Source: Oscillospiraceae bacterium (lineage in GTDB: Bacteria > Bacillota > Clostridia > Oscillospirales > Oscillospiraceae). From it: a stretch of DNA of 64,000 bases. Each line of letters opens with the position of its first letter. Position 1 is the first letter of the stretch. The position numbers and the translations under genes were made by a program. Of this stretch, positions 40,706 through 46,005 are shown in pieces. The stretch lies in assembly GCA_015067495.1 (NCBI GenBank), contig SVMI01000005.1, positions 41,599 to 105,598 on the forward strand, written 5' to 3'. The notes beneath the pieces are model-generated. The model was given only the letters and a program-made list of their open reading frames with translations. It searched no databases and had not been told where the DNA came from.

Positions 40706-40791
40706 GCCGGTGTGTTGGAATGGTAGACGAGGAGGACTCAAAATCCTTTGGTAGCGATACCGTGTGGGTTCGAGTCCCACCACCGGCACCA
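40706..40791 (+). tRNA. tRNA-Leu(CAA), intact copy carried inside the element
   Basis: 86 nt; acceptor GCCGGTG/CACCGGC, anticodon arm GAGGA-CTCAAAA-TCCTT, long variable arm, GTGGG-TTCGAGT-CCCAC, encoded CCA. Confidence 0.93.
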
Positions 40792-40948
40792 CAAAATGTG
40801 GGCCTGTATTCTCAGAATACAGGCTTGCTTTTTGTATTATAAATAGTTATTTTATATCTTCTTGTAGAGTCGTGTCATTTAGGGGATGACAAATTAGATT
40901 TTATTTGGTATAATATAGAAAATATTTTACTTGAAGGAGGGAAATACT

Positions 40949-41851
40949 ATGGAATTCCCGTGGCAGGAAATTGCATCAGCAGCTAATTTGTTGGCATCCC
41001 TTTCGGTTTTTTCAGGCATTATAGTCTATAAACTAGAAAAATCTGATACAGCAATTTACAATGTGCAACGAGCAATTATTAAATTCAGAGCCAATGTCCA
41101 GGCTCTTGATCGGGATTTTAGAACAGAATTATTCAGTGAAATGGCAGCATCTACTATATACGCTGATTCATTATCATCTATATATCCCAAGATTCTCTCG
41201 GAACTTAATAATTCCATCAAAGAATACCAATCATTATCTCGTAAGAAGCAAGATGCTTTCTTGAAAACAGCTTCAGTAAAACTTATTAAATTAATCGGTG
41301 CAATTCCAACATCTGTTTCTACCCCATTAGTATTACGAACAGAGGATAGGATTGAAGAGCTAATTAAAGAGTCTTTGCCATTCACTCCTCATTTTGCTGG
41401 ATTAGAGCGAGTCGCAACAACAGTTTACCATTTGTATTTCCAATTATTAAATAAGTATCGGGCAATTTGCTTGGATCTTAAAAACTGGGAAGTCGTATTC
41501 AAAAACATTATTTGCAACGAAGTTGTACTTGATAACGTGGAAGAACTCAAGTATACACTATGTATTCATTTAGCGGCATTGCAAAATACAATTGCTGCCG
41601 AACACGATCAAGCAGATATTGATATAGTTGTTAAAATTGTTAACCTAATCTGTAATGCATATCTCTCGAAAAGCACACATGAATTAAAGAAGCTTAGAAA
41701 AAGCAAAGTTTCACTATTGCCCTTTGAATCATCTGATACATATGTGGCACAATTTACTGAGGCACAAAAAGCATTTAGAGAAGTGCTTTCTCGAGATGAG
41801 GAAAATGCTTATTCAAATTATGTAAAAGAATTTGAAATGAACAACCAATAA
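40949..41851 (+). CDS. Hypothetical cargo protein (N-terminal hydrophobic helix, alpha-helical body)
   Basis: 300-aa AT-rich ORF with AAGGAGG RBS; no motif recognised. Confidence 0.75.
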   Translation: MEFPWQEIASAANLLASLSVFSGIIVYKLEKSDTAIYNVQRAIIKFRANVQALDRDFRTELFSEMAASTIYADSLSSIYPKILSELNNSIKEYQSLSRKKQDAFLKTASVKLIKLIGAIPTSVSTPLVLRTEDRIEELIKESLPFTPHFAGLERVATTVYHLYFQLLNKYRAICLDLKNWEVVFKNIICNEVVLDNVEELKYTLCIHLAALQNTIAAEHDQADIDIVVKIVNLICNAYLSKSTHELKKLRKSKVSLLPFESSDTYVAQFTEAQKAFREVLSRDEENAYSNYVKEFEMNNQ

Positions 41852-41852
41852 T

Positions 41853-41893
41853 CAAAAAAGAGAGGTGTTGCCTTAACAACGCCTCTCTTTTTG
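41853..41893. terminator. Bidirectional terminator between convergent cargo units
   Basis: CAAAAAAGAGAGGTGTTG...CAACGCCTCTCTTTTTG. Confidence 0.75.
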
Positions 41894-42292
41894 TTAATCA
41901 TTTTCAGAAACTGAAACAGTGGAAACAGTAGTTGATTCTCCCAATCTAAGCTTGTGTCCCATACTATTCAAGATAGCAACTGCTTTTTCAGCTATTGTCT
42001 CATGAATGATTTTAGGGCAATAATCCGCTGCAACGGCGCTACGGTTTTCTGGAATCGGGTCGAACTTGAACACAAATTCCGTTTCACAAGTCATCTTCAG
42101 CAACTCTTCACTCGGATCTTTTATTACACAATCTGCCTTTATCAAGATGGTAGGGTCGGTTTCATCCTTGGGCTCATAAACAGAAGCGGAGTGATTAACT
42201 TCAATTTGAGTAATAGCGGATTCTTCAAAATTAACGTCTACAGTTAACTTGTTAATATGCGAGCTAAGCAATTCAACACAATAACCAGCCAC
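41894..42292 (-). CDS. Small acidic protein, putative SecB-like chaperone
   Basis: GTG start with AGGAGG RBS overlapping the hicB stop; four beta-strand-like segments followed by a long helix ending SMGH; size and position fit a TAC chaperone. Fold is inferred by eye. Confidence 0.5.
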   Translation of the reverse strand: MAGYCVELLSSHINKLTVDVNFEESAITQIEVNHSASVYEPKDETDPTILIKADCVIKDPSEELLKMTCETEFVFKFDPIPENRSAVAADYCPKIIHETIAEKAVAILNSMGHKLRLGESTTVSTVSVSEND

Positions 42293-42303
42293 GATTCTAC
42301 CTC

Positions 42304-42759
42304 CTAAGATAATTGAGTGCTAGGCATCGAGTGATACCTATTGGTGTCAACCCTATCACTAAATGCATGCATAGTTGCTGCTTGCTGGACAACCGGTAAC
42401 TGAACGATAACTTCTTTGTATCGTACTGGCTTGATATATTCTTCGATTGCCTGTTGAATAAACTGATTTAAGGACACACCATCCTCCTCAGCTTTAAGGG
42501 CCGCTTTTCGATGTAATTCCTGAGGAATTCTAACGTTAAATGATCCTTTGTATTCTTTATCAGGGGCAATGCCTCTTGCTTCACAGATTTCTAAATAAGT
42601 GTCGATGCAATCATGAAATGATTCTTTGACCTCTTCAATAGAAGCACCGTGAAAGTTCAGAGAATCTCTAATACCAAATACCGAACCAACCAAAATACCG
42701 TCATCCGCATCAAATTCGACTTTGGCATGATAGCCTTTGTATGAGAGCATGTTGGACAT
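42304..42759 (-). CDS. hicB: HicB family antitoxin with about 40-aa C-terminal extension
   Basis: LSYKGYHAKVEFDADDGILVG..NFHGASIEEVKESF, then RHH GSFNVRIPQELHRKAALKA..SLNQFI. Confidence 0.9.
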   Translation of the reverse strand: MSNMLSYKGYHAKVEFDADDGILVGSVFGIRDSLNFHGASIEEVKESFHDCIDTYLEICEARGIAPDKEYKGSFNVRIPQELHRKAALKAEEDGVSLNQFIQQAIEEYIKPVRYKEVIVQLPVVQQAATMHAFSDRVDTNRYHSMPSTQLS

Positions 42760-42771
42760 AAAAATTTCTCC

Positions 42772-43029
42772 TTATGATTCGCCAATATCTTCGAGAAATG
42801 TACGAACCTTTTTTATTTGATAGGAATATAATTCCTTTCCGGGGTGAGGACCATCAAAAATAAGTTTGCGTCCAGTAGATGTATGGATATATGCGATAGC
42901 AGAACCCCGTCCACCTGAACATTTTTCGCAGCCGCACATGCGCATGAGCGCATCTAGTTCATTGACGGTAAAGTTCTTTGGGATACTTTTGCGCCATATT
43001 TTTTCCATAAGATCTTCTTTCTTCGGCAA
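42772..43029 (-). CDS. hicA: HicA family mRNase toxin
   Basis: TTG start with GGAGGTG RBS; FTVNELDALM, GRGS, PHPGKELYSYQIKKVR. Confidence 0.85.
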   Translation of the reverse strand: MPKKEDLMEKIWRKSIPKNFTVNELDALMRMCGCEKCSGGRGSAIAYIHTSTGRKLIFDGPHPGKELYSYQIKKVRTFLEDIGES

Positions 43030-43050
43030 ACCTGATCCACCTCCCCATCG

Positions 43051-43111
43051 TTAGTATGCAACTAAGTTTTAGTTGCATACTAATAATACATGTTTATTTT
43101 ATTCAAGTCAA
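43051..43111 (-). promoter_or_regulatory. hicAB promoter with palindromic operator
   Basis: TTGACT-17-TATTAT (43111-43083) and a perfect 15-bp inverted repeat TTAGTATGCAACTAA-3 nt-TTAGTTGCATACTAA (43051-43083) over the start site. Confidence 0.75.
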
Positions 43112-43142
43112 TACACAAAATGAGAAAAATGTAAATATCTAT

Positions 43143-44621
43143 TTACAAAAATGGTAACGATGCTTGCATTGCATTTGCAGAGATCCTTTTGCTGTTGCTG
43201 TCCAAGTGAGTATATATGTTTGATGTTGTGCCAATATCACTATGCCCAAGCCATTCTTGGATATCCTTTAGTCCGATGCCACAAGCATAAAGCAAACTGG
43301 CGCAGCTATGGCGCAGATCGTGGAAACGTATCTTTTTTAGGCTATTCCTTTCCAGCAACAAAGCGAAGTGCTGTGTTACGAAATTGGGCTTCAGCAGATG
43401 TCCCATTGGATCAACACAGACATAATCCAGGTATTCCTTGCAGTAATCTCTCCCAAAGGATTGCTGGTTTTGTATTTGCGTTTCTTTAACCTTACAAAGC
43501 AGCTTTTCGAACGGAGGAACAAGTGGGAGTGTCCGATAGCTGGAGGCCGTTTTTGTTCCATCCTTCTGAATTATCTTCGTGTGCCCGTTGAGTGTTGTTT
43601 GTACCACGGTGTGATTGATGCAGATTGTTTTCCTCTCAAAGTCGATGGCACTCCATTTTAGTCCGATAACCTCACTGCGACGAAGCCCATAGAACGCCGC
43701 TGCTAAGATTGGCAATTCCAAAGGGTCATCCTTGGCCATAAGAAATAGCTGTTGCAATTCATGTTGGTTATAGATGTTTGTATGAAATCTGTCTTTACTG
43801 GGTTTCTCAATGCGATCAGCAGGATTGGACTTTATCAGTCCCAACCGAAACGCATATTGTAAACAGCTGTGAATATTAGCATGGCGTCTAATAACCGTTG
43901 CCGGTGCCAATCCCTCAGACAGAAGATACTGATAATACTCCTGAATATATTTCGGGCGATGCTCCAACTGTTTCAATGTAAGCTGTTTAGGGTCAAAGAA
44001 CGGGATGATGCTTTTCTCTACATTTGAGACATAAGAAGCATATGTAGTTACGGCGATCTTTGATTGCACAACATCCAGCCAGTCAAATAGAAAGTCTGTA
44101 AATAGTATTGTTTCATAAGTACAGGGATTCACTTTAATTGCAGGATTCTCCTTGAGCCACTTTAGCTCTATTGCATACTCCAAGGCAGATGTAAATATGG
44201 CGTGATAAAGTTTTAGTTGTTTGATCCCAGCGCCATTCTCCTCCTGTTCATAGCAATAAAACCGTTCAAGTTCATTAGGGGTCAATTCGGTAAGCTTTAT
44301 CCTATTTGTCAGAAAGTACGGCTGAATATTTGCGCTTAAGGAATAAGCATATCCAGCATACAGTGCGGGTGGAATAGCTGATGCTCTATCATGTATCCAC
44401 TTGTCAATGAAATCAGCAAACAGCATATCAGCGTTTTCAAGCTCGTTTCTGGGGTTAAAATGCTGACGGGTATCCAGCAACATTTGTTCTGCCTTTGCCT
44501 TGTTGCCCTCTACTGTGAGTCTTGTGCTGATAGATTTACTCTTGCGTTTCCCGTCTTTTCCTTTCCAATTCAGTACCATTTGGTAGTATCCGTTTTGCTC
44601 CCTTAGATGCCCAGCAACCAT
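43143..44621 (-). CDS. int: Site-specific tyrosine integrase
   Basis: N-terminal arm-binding segment, two core-binding-like domains, catalytic YGLRRSE, FHDLRHS, LGHSD, NIYTH. Confidence 0.93.
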   Translation of the reverse strand: MVAGHLREQNGYYQMVLNWKGKDGKRKSKSISTRLTVEGNKAKAEQMLLDTRQHFNPRNELENADMLFADFIDKWIHDRASAIPPALYAGYAYSLSANIQPYFLTNRIKLTELTPNELERFYCYEQEENGAGIKQLKLYHAIFTSALEYAIELKWLKENPAIKVNPCTYETILFTDFLFDWLDVVQSKIAVTTYASYVSNVEKSIIPFFDPKQLTLKQLEHRPKYIQEYYQYLLSEGLAPATVIRRHANIHSCLQYAFRLGLIKSNPADRIEKPSKDRFHTNIYNQHELQQLFLMAKDDPLELPILAAAFYGLRRSEVIGLKWSAIDFERKTICINHTVVQTTLNGHTKIIQKDGTKTASSYRTLPLVPPFEKLLCKVKETQIQNQQSFGRDYCKEYLDYVCVDPMGHLLKPNFVTQHFALLLERNSLKKIRFHDLRHSCASLLYACGIGLKDIQEWLGHSDIGTTSNIYTHLDSNSKRISANAMQASLPFL

Positions 44622-44736
44622 ATTTCATCCTCCTTTACTAATACTATGTTGTGCTGCTAATGGTATAGATCAATTTTCGCATACATTGGAACTAGCAAAA
44701 GGCACCCGCTGCCGGGTGCCTTCGTCGTTAATATGA

Positions 44737-44979
44737 TTAAATCTGCGCTTTAAGTTTTAGACGATATTTTGCGTAATGGGTTCCGAGAATGTAGTCGATC
44801 ACCCACTCCTTCGGAATTAAGTAGGTACTATGGATATAGTAGTGCCTTACATAGTTTCCGCGCAAAAGTTTTCTTGCTGTCTGATCAGCGATACCACCCA
44901 GCATTTCACAAAACTGTGGGAGTGTCACAACTGCAGGATAATTCTCAAAGCGGTCACGATAGTATTTTCGGTTTCTCAT
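44737..44979 (-). CDS. Excisionase-like HTH DNA-binding protein
   Basis: VVTLPQFCEMLGGIADQTARKLLR..YLIPKEWVIDYI; small, basic, directly upstream of the integrase. Confidence 0.7.
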   Translation of the reverse strand: MRNRKYYRDRFENYPAVVTLPQFCEMLGGIADQTARKLLRGNYVRHYYIHSTYLIPKEWVIDYILGTHYAKYRLKLKAQI

Positions 44980-45267
44980 GAAGTCAGCCCTTTCCAATGT
45001 GAATTGTCAATGACGGATGAGGCTGTTGTAGCATTTTCTGTATTTCAATTTGTGTCGATGGTGACACATCCCTCCAATATCCCTCCAACGAGCAAAAAAT
45101 CCCGTCAAATCAGATGTCACTTTCTACAAGCAGAATTGCTTGTAAATTTAAAGTTCTCTGAAAATTCCGAACTTTTTATAAGTATTTTTCTTAAATAAAT
45201 GCGCTACGTCAAGTGGAATATTCCACTCCATTCCGCTATATTCCACTAGATACCAGACGATGACAAT

Positions 45268-45324
45268 GACTCAAAATCCACCGCTGGCGACAGCGTGCCG
45301 GTTCGAGTCCGGCCACCGGCACCA
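45268..45324 (+). pseudogene. 3' half of the interrupted host tRNA-Leu(CAA) (attR side)
   Basis: GACTCAAAATCCACCGCTGGCGACAGCGTGCCGGTTCGAGTCCGGCCACCGGCACCA; joined to 40523-40551 it gives an 86-nt tRNA with a perfect GTGGA/TCCAC anticodon stem. Confidence 0.9.
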
Positions 45325-45329
45325 AAGCG

Positions 45330-45359
45330 AAGCACGACCCCAACTGGGGTCGTTCTTTT
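45330..45359 (+). terminator. Terminator after tRNA-Leu; near-duplicate at 45976-46005
   Basis: AAGCACGACCCCAA-CT-GGGGTCGTTCTTTT versus AAGCACGACCCCAA-GC-GGGGTCGTGCTTTT. Confidence 0.75.
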
Positions 45360-45952: not shown

Positions 45953-46005
45953 TTGACGATTGTGAATAATGCTGAAAGCACGACCCCAAGCGGGGTCGTG
46001 CTTTT

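Follow-up and report, generated by a model that had tools for sequence, protein, structure and literature searches.

A putative HicAB-class toxin-antitoxin-chaperone cassette with a compact SecB-fold partner on an island of an Oscillospiraceae bacterium

The DNA analysed here is a 64,000-nucleotide (nt) stretch from an Oscillospiraceae bacterium (assembly GCA_015067495.1, contig SVMI01000005.1, forward-strand positions 41,599-105,598), the whole of which is referred to as the window and is numbered from its first base. On its minus strand the window carries a cassette of three genes, which encode a putative toxin of the HicA family, a HicB antitoxin with a long C-terminal tail and a small protein that is predicted to adopt the SecB fold. 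We consider it likely that the cassette is, and works as, a type II toxin-antitoxin-chaperone (TAC) module of the HicAB class, in which the tail of the antitoxin would be a chaperone-addiction (ChAD) element and the third protein its dedicated chaperone. The genes and the parts of HicB on which this proposal turns are the following (lengths in amino acids, aa).

42772-43029, minus strand: hicA, 85 aa, TTG start; putative HicA-family toxin.
42304-42759, minus strand: hicB, 151 aa, ATG start; antitoxin, comprising the HicB N-domain (residues 1-62), a ribbon-helix-helix (RHH; about residues 72-110) and a tail (residues 111-151).
42307-42429, minus strand: putative ChAD tail, hicB codons 111-151, PVRYKEVIVQLPVVQQAATMHAFSDRVDTNRYHSMPSTQLS.
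41894-42292, minus strand: third gene, 132 aa, GTG start; SecB-fold protein, putative dedicated chaperone.

The features that define a TAC are an operon for toxin, antitoxin and chaperone, a chaperone related to SecB, a C-terminal ChAD and dependence on the chaperone (PMC5105189, PMC6377645); TACs have a common gene order and variable ChAD extensions at the C-terminus (PMC5105189). They have been reported from seven phyla, one Firmicute included, and lie mostly in horizontally acquired regions (PMC3581621). A preliminary description of the cassette, made from the DNA alone, was right to list HigBAC and MqsRAC among the known systems, but it missed the TACs of the HicAB type. Indeed HicAB, with HigBA and MqsRA, was one of the three toxin-antitoxin (TA) families of TACs listed in 2013 (PMC3581621), and the HicAB-SecB^TA system of Methylomonas methanica was found to be functional in 2016, its ChAD corresponding to HicB residues 119-159 (PMC5105189). 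Thus, as HicAB TACs had already been both catalogued and tested, a 'HicAB-type TAC' is no new combination.

The identification of the third protein as SecB-like is supported by its predicted fold and by remote homology. The AlphaFold2 model (pLDDT 81, pTM 0.74) consists of four antiparallel strands (residues 5-20, 31-39, 48-58 and 65-78) and one long helix (residues 84-110), with a disordered C-terminus (residues 119-132); M111-G112-H113, in the loop past that helix, are invariant. SecB itself has a four-stranded sheet, a helix alpha1 and a second C-terminal helix, and is a dimer of dimers. When the model was compared with the PDB by Foldseek, the top 17 matches were all SecB or the Mycobacterium tuberculosis protein Rv1957 (E 2.3e-5 to 1.4e-3, prob 1.00, TM 0.55-0.60). 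Ranks 1-3 were chains of 5mtw, the structure of Rv1957 with the ChAD peptide of HigA1 (E 2.3e-5, TM 0.58-0.60), and the ranks from there through 17 were occupied by the E. coli and H. influenzae SecB structures 1qyn, 1fx3, 1ozb and 5jtl, together with the remaining 5mtw chain. After rank 17 came 2o2a and 2hng, which we take to be members of the SecB-like superfamily of SCOP, and unrelated folds appeared solely at E > 0.03. In a viral structure library the best matches to the model were phage proteins annotated as SecB. The SecB call of the preliminary description had been made by eye, and a non-SecB fold was named there as one result that would refute its interpretation; the structural ranking bears the call out, as does the profile comparison that follows.

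At the level of sequence, a profile of 81 members of the third-gene family was aligned by hhalign with 18 Bacillota proteins of PF02556, end to end over 116 columns (Prob 91.6, P 8.4e-7). The third-gene family and Pfam SecB are bridged by a 144-aa protein that stands alone in a genome (G014) of the same taxonomic family and is hit by the family profile (E 5.6e-6) as well as by Pfam SecB (E 1.8e-4). The third protein itself has no match in Pfam, NCBIfam, PADLOC or PHROGs and, having no PF02556 match, is classed here as SecB-like by fold and not as a member of Pfam SecB. Its family comprises 11 close clusters in an index of 5.8 billion proteins, and 77 clusters (E <= 1e-3) when 1.84 billion representatives were searched exhaustively with a profile; the members are 117-132 aa long and have one helix. 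A literature search found no paper that describes such a one-helix, Pfam-invisible clade of the SecB fold. The host genome (2.0 Mb, 97% complete) contains no PF02556 match.

Four further proteins that are not linked to TA genes were left out of the count of the TAC clade. Two of these (L012:1411-1851, minus strand; L014:1492-1926, plus strand) are standalone proteins of 144-146 aa, encoded away from TA genes in genomes of the same taxonomic family. Their matches to the family profile are weak (E 2e-7 and 6e-6), as is a match of one of them to Pfam SecB (E 1.8e-4); they are possibly solitary, SecB-like proteins of Clostridia that lack SecB. The other two, of 123-129 aa (L013:1420-1791, minus strand; L015:1471-1860, plus strand), also match the profile weakly (E 2e-6 and 7.5e-4), lie near genes that by eye resemble those for the spore-coat proteins CotJB and CotJC, and are probably unrelated or very distant.

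The genes upstream of the third gene encode a TA pair of a classical type II family, HicAB. HicB matches Pfam HicB (PF05534; E 9.5e-24, residues 55-105), Arc/RHH (E 2.5e-4, residues 73-110), the YlcI/YnfO N-domain of NCBIfam and phrog_9151, 'HicB-like antitoxin' (E 1.7e-38, residues 1-112 only), while HicA matches Pfam HicA_toxin (PF07927; E 1.1e-6, 29 bits) and, over its full length, phrog_8887, 'toxin' (E 3.6e-16). In an AlphaFold2 model of HicB built from a 57-sequence alignment, strands at residues 4-38 are followed by a helix at 41-62 and by the RHH helices at 80-93 and 97-109. Beyond these lies the 41-residue tail, which starts with PVRYKEVIVQLPVV, ends with NRYHSMPSTQLS and is free of domains; residues 110-151 have no secondary structure in the model (pLDDT 50-57), and the tail is thus predicted to be disordered. 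Its orthologues retain two motifs, a YK-x-hydrophobic stretch-(L/F)P (here YKEVIVQLPVV) directly after the RHH and NRY(H/R)S near the end. For pairs with unsaturated synonymous sites, dN/dS was 0.17-0.23 in the tail, a value that derives from 41-43 codons only, as against 0.04-0.05 in the HicB core and 0.07-0.14 in the third gene, from which the tail is under purifying selection yet fast-evolving. The extension of about 40 aa that the preliminary description placed past the RHH was therefore found as residues 111-151, outside every domain, and its designation as a ChAD element agrees with the distribution of the tail, which is missing from two-gene HicBs and always present beside the third gene.

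The association between tail and third gene was without exception. In every locus examined, hicA, a tailed hicB (149-166 aa) and a member of the third-gene family were adjacent or overlapping, and in every case sampled the third-protein clade was tied to HicB. The third gene keeps its position, overlapping the hicB stop or 8-15 nt away from it, from 95% down to <=26% identity and in unrelated surroundings. The close relatives of the triplet (47-78% identity) differ in their genomic surroundings; a locus search with a narrower alignment gave only two loci, one in a Faecousia sp. and one in an uncultured Oscillospiraceae bacterium. The triplet was found on the contig of the latter, in the genome of another family of the order (G111) and at loci whose HicBs (149 and 159 aa) have quite different tails. 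Four distant family members (<=26% identity) each overlap the end of a HicB of 156-166 aa. HicB relatives fall into two length classes, of about 109-126 and about 146-166 aa, and the third gene follows the long class only. Across 401 genomes sampled evenly from the order there were 20 HicB loci of this subfamily, and a member of the third-gene family adjoined each of the three with a tail (151, 157 and 166 aa) but none of the 17 without one (109-124 aa, or other architectures). The pairing also held in every metagenome locus examined, two metagenomic tail-less HicBs (118 and 126 aa) being plain two-gene loci. Antitoxin-chaperone pairs that seemed to be 'toxin-less' (L007, L022/23, L064/65) were rejected as such, a six-frame search having recovered a full hicA upstream of each.

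It should be emphasized that a number of observations weigh against the assignment of the cassette as a TAC. The fold match is moderate (TM 0.55-0.60, rmsd about 4 Å), and the model of the third protein is without the second C-terminal helix of SecB. The hhalign match requires the broad 81-member profile, a 12-member profile yielding none. None of the 81 family members matches Pfam SecB (PF02556, cut-off 26 bits) at E <= 0.1, nor does any family recur in that scan, and PDB sequence searches with the single protein and with the 12-member and 81-member profiles returned chance-level matches only. In sequence the HicB tail is unlike the known ChADs, so that this comparison lends the assignment no support, although a resemblance would not be expected because published ChADs differ among themselves. 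The sampled genomes are related, and the division of three tailed against 17 tail-less loci is thus a pattern and not a formal test. Finally, HicA lies only 2 bits above its Pfam cut-off of 27 bits, no solved HicA structure was matched when the PDB was searched with its sequence and with a HicA profile, and in an alignment made by eye Ser43 stands at the position of the canonical catalytic histidine.

The last of these points concerns the toxin. In the canonical HicA proteins of B. pseudomallei, Y. pestis and E. coli, the catalytic histidine belongs to a G-S/K-H motif with which strand 1 begins. In the HicA subfamily of the cassette residues 39-49 read GGRGS-x-I-x-Y-x-H without variation, and H49 and a P-H62-P, within PHP(G), are also invariant. 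HicA thus appears to be without the canonical catalytic histidine, which lowers confidence that it acts like a textbook HicA; taken with the marginal Pfam score and the lack of a solved relative, it means that toxicity of HicA is not assured. It could be argued, therefore, that the architecture is that of a TAC but that the toxin has diverged, the HicA-like protein being inactive or something other than an mRNA interferase and the cassette mainly a relic of the island with an addiction or regulatory role. Consistent with this proposal, the Pfam score at the threshold and the failure to detect a solved HicA are accompanied by the replacement of G-S/K-H by GGRGS in all close orthologues, the HicA of the distant triplet L041 retaining GGKH (by eye). 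HicA is, however, highly conserved: the orthologues (84-88 aa) have a common N-terminus (MPKKE...) and a mean column identity of 74% across loci, both His49 and His62 are invariant, and the match to a phage 'toxin' family covers the full length of the protein. The GGRGS motif, moreover, also occurs in the two-gene relatives L016 and L018, and a dead toxin would not keep its antitoxin and chaperone under purifying selection. We regard a toxin that has lost its activity, or exchanged it for another, as unlikely.

The arrangement of the control elements bears on a second alternative. They are the following.

43083-43111, minus strand: sigma-70-like promoter, with -35 TTGACT at 43111-43106, a 17-nt spacer and -10 TATTAT at 43088-43083.
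43051-43083: operator palindrome, TTAGTATGCAACTAA-AAC-TTAGTTGCATACTAA, 15-3-15, between the -10 box and the ribosome-binding site (RBS).
41853-41891 (approximate): terminator, a hairpin with a T-run (an A-run on the other strand), common to the cassette and a convergent 306-aa gene.

The genes stand in the order toxin, antitoxin, chaperone between one promoter and one terminator, with the RBS of each downstream gene lying over the preceding stop. An AAGGAG overlaps the stop of hicA, which is separated from the ATG of hicB by a 12-nt gap, and the TAG stop of hicB forms the first bases of a TAGGAGG 7 nt ahead of the third-gene GTG, the gap between these two genes being 11 nt. The promoter has 10/12 consensus matches and is the sole promoter-like site on the minus strand within 41700-43300. 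The terminator hairpin (dG -22.7 kcal/mol, z -6.15) was equalled by 0/200 shuffles; it is absent from the list of a simple motif scan, probably owing to one internal mismatch in its stem. Two statements of the preliminary description, that three tightly coupled genes are served by one promoter and that the RBS of the third gene overlaps the hicB stop, hold in full. Its perfect 33-bp palindrome has the position, the span and the perfect arms described, but it is not continuous: two arms of 15 nt (43051-43065 and 43069-43083), 100% complementary, flank a non-palindromic 3-nt centre. As the -10 box ends at 43083, the palindrome begins on the last base of that box.

The core of the palindrome, TGCAACTA-N5-TAGTTGCA, a pattern with 0.02 chance occurrences expected in the window, recurs ahead of hicA, its position unchanged, in the loci examined, three-gene and two-gene alike and the distant G111 locus among them; some loci have one or two mismatches in it. 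The layout of TTGAC-, -10, palindrome and RBS recurs upstream of hicA in homologous loci. This phylogenetic footprint argues that the conserved RHH domain has a genuine operator here, and the palindrome is probably the binding site of a HicB RHH dimer, a prediction from sequence. That the operator is common to two-gene relatives also means that the third protein could add a regulatory layer. It may thus be proposed that the third protein is SecB-like but a regulatory partner of HicB, serving as co-repressor or anti-repressor through the tail or as an adaptor for delivery to a protease. The tail follows directly upon the DNA-binding RHH, and the fact that tail and third gene are strictly linked shows an interaction, not its sign. 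In opposition to this proposal, all of the top structural matches are chaperones, Pfam and NCBIfam scans detected no DNA-binding or protease-adaptor feature in the family, and all TACs that have been tested have a SecB-like partner by which the antitoxin is stabilised (PMC5105189, PMC6377645). A regulatory partner is, in our assessment, decidedly improbable. A further alternative is an ordinary two-gene HicAB with an unrelated third gene that travels on the same island, its SecB likeness a coincidence of a small and simple alpha/beta fold with moderate TM-scores and no sequence-model match. A chance passenger is ruled out on synteny and selection and this explanation is close to refuted, since the third gene holds its place across the full range of identity and in unrelated surroundings, never stands beside a tail-less HicB, evolves at dN/dS 0.07-0.14 and has hhalign support for full-length homology to SecB.

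Taken as a TAC, the cassette would function in the following manner. The three genes would form an operon with coupled translation, driven by the single promoter; the N-terminal domain of HicB would bind HicA, and its RHH would repress the operon at the palindrome, which overlaps the region of transcription start. The disordered 41-residue tail would make the antitoxin prone to aggregation or proteolysis, unless it is bound by the third protein, a minimal one-helix SecB fold that is probably a tetramer like SecB. HicB with its tail so occupied would stay soluble and protected, and HicA would remain neutralised. Should the chaperone be titrated or become limiting, through stress or possibly through phage proteins as in E. 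coli HigBAC and CmdTAC, HicB would be lost and HicA would arrest growth. The binding of tail and third protein, the oligomeric state, the toxicity of HicA, the trigger and the role, whether in defence or in stabilising the island, are what we infer.

Anti-phage roles have been shown for E. coli HigBAC, CmdTAC and MqsRAC (bioRxiv 10.1101/2024.02.24.581848; PMC11618068; PMC9519451), and a defence function of the cassette is possible but unsupported; the 'defence module' of the preliminary description finds no backing in the present evidence. PADLOC returned no match for the three cassette proteins, and tblastn against phage and plasmid collections returned none for the third-protein clade. A wider proposal, which we put forward as doubtful when all of its parts are taken jointly, is that a clade of at least 77 clusters (50% identity) of one-helix SecB-fold proteins of 117-132 aa is exclusive to long-tailed HicBs in SecB-less Gram-positive gut anaerobes and acts as a phage sensor on islands and prophages, a phage structural protein titrating the chaperone and thereby releasing a HicA that would be active without the canonical histidine.

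The cassette is situated on a small integrative island, the parts and neighbours of which are listed below.

40706-45324: integrative island, about 4.5 kb, low GC, bounded by tRNA-Leu(CAA) and a degenerate repeat of its 3' part.
40706-40791: tRNA-Leu(CAA), intact; island boundary.
40931-41851, plus strand: orphan 306-aa gene, convergent with the TAC operon and sharing its terminator.
43143-44621, minus strand: tyrosine integrase, at the end of the island far from the intact tRNA.
44737-44997, minus strand: 86-aa open reading frame (ORF), no family match.
45259-45324: degenerate copy of the 3' part of tRNA-Leu, 66 nt, 77% identical.

The GC content of the island is 34-44%, against about 48-59% in the flanks, which carry an aspartyl-tRNA synthetase and an AraC regulator. 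The small island of the preliminary description was recognized by this low GC, the tRNA-Leu boundary with its degenerate copy and the tyrosine integrase. As the tRNA 3' copies are only 77% identical, one end has a tRNA 3' part supplied by the element that is unlike the one displaced. The only genome of the same genus sampled (G235, 99% complete) contains no match to the HicB subfamily or to the third-gene family. The product of the 306-aa gene has a hydrophobic N-terminal segment, the rest looking helical, and only chance-level family matches (PADLOC PDC-M36B, E 0.011; DUF4473, E 0.05); the gene could be a further cargo or defence gene of the island. Just beyond the far end of the island, two copies of a GC-rich hairpin with a T-run (AAGCACGACCCCAACTGGGGTCGTTCTTTT; 45330-45359 and 45976-46005), 90% identical and 646 nt apart, bracket three small ORFs that have no family match; they look like duplicated terminators.

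Some relatives of the cassette are likewise found beside genes of mobile elements. The L020 relative lies beside an integrase and ImmA/HTH genes in a prophage-like setting, and another relative stands beside a serine recombinase. In a metagenomic locus (L066:1936-4288) an SPP1-type portal gene comes after the triplet, as does a gene with a SocA_Panacea domain, and this triplet is within a phage or prophage, beside another antitoxin-type domain.

Of the characterized systems, the Mmet-TAC of M. methanica MC09 (HicA Metme_2813, HicB Metme_2812 and SecB^TA) has the same TA families, gene order and SecB-type partner as the cassette, and an extension of HicB of about 40 residues, with the ChAD at 119-159 there and the tail at 111-151 here. 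The host of Mmet-TAC, however, is a gammaproteobacterium, and such TAC hosts also have a housekeeping SecB (PMC3581621), whereas the host here is without a PF02556 match. The chaperones of that generation were gathered by PSI-BLAST from Rv1957 and lie partly in PF02556, while the family described here is shorter, has one helix and is invisible to PF02556, a distinction from Mmet that is drawn by description. Structurally, the third protein matches best the chaperone of M. tuberculosis HigB1-HigA1-SecB^TA (Rv1955-Rv1956-Rv1957, 5mtw), a system in which a SecB-like tetramer binds a disordered extension of the antitoxin (PMC6377645), and the same principle is proposed for the cassette. The tail here has aromatic-plus-basic motifs (RYK, NRYH) that loosely resemble the W/Y/R-rich motifs of ChADs. 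Differences from the mycobacterial system are that the TA family there is HigBA, that Rv1957 has 181 aa and two helices, that identity in the structural alignment is 10-12% and that the tails have no detectable similarity. Like E. coli HigBAC, CmdTAC and MqsRAC, which are tripartite and reside on mobile elements or prophages, the cassette has three parts and some prophage-like relatives (L020, L066); the toxins of those systems are different ones, and defence was shown for them whereas for the cassette it is a possibility. Two-gene HicABs (for example L016, L018 and L026-L034) have a HicA 65-70% and a HicB core 57-68% identical to those of the window, with the same operator core and promoter layout, but their HicB stops just past the RHH (109-126 aa) and they lack the third gene.

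What is unusual in the cassette is therefore modest, an unannotated minimal chaperone of the SecB fold and an atypical HicA motif, and no new kind of system is opened by it. Because Pfam, NCBIfam, PADLOC and PHROGs leave the chaperone family unnamed, cassettes of this type are annotated as a plain HicAB with a hypothetical protein. Tail and chaperone go strictly together, and their pairing offers a simple rule by which HicAB-class TACs may be found. The compact chaperone of 117-132 aa would be a convenient minimal model for the recognition of an addiction tail by a SecB-type protein. As read here, the cassette confirms that TACs of the HicAB class occur in gut bacteria of the Clostridia type in which no SecB of the host itself is detectable.

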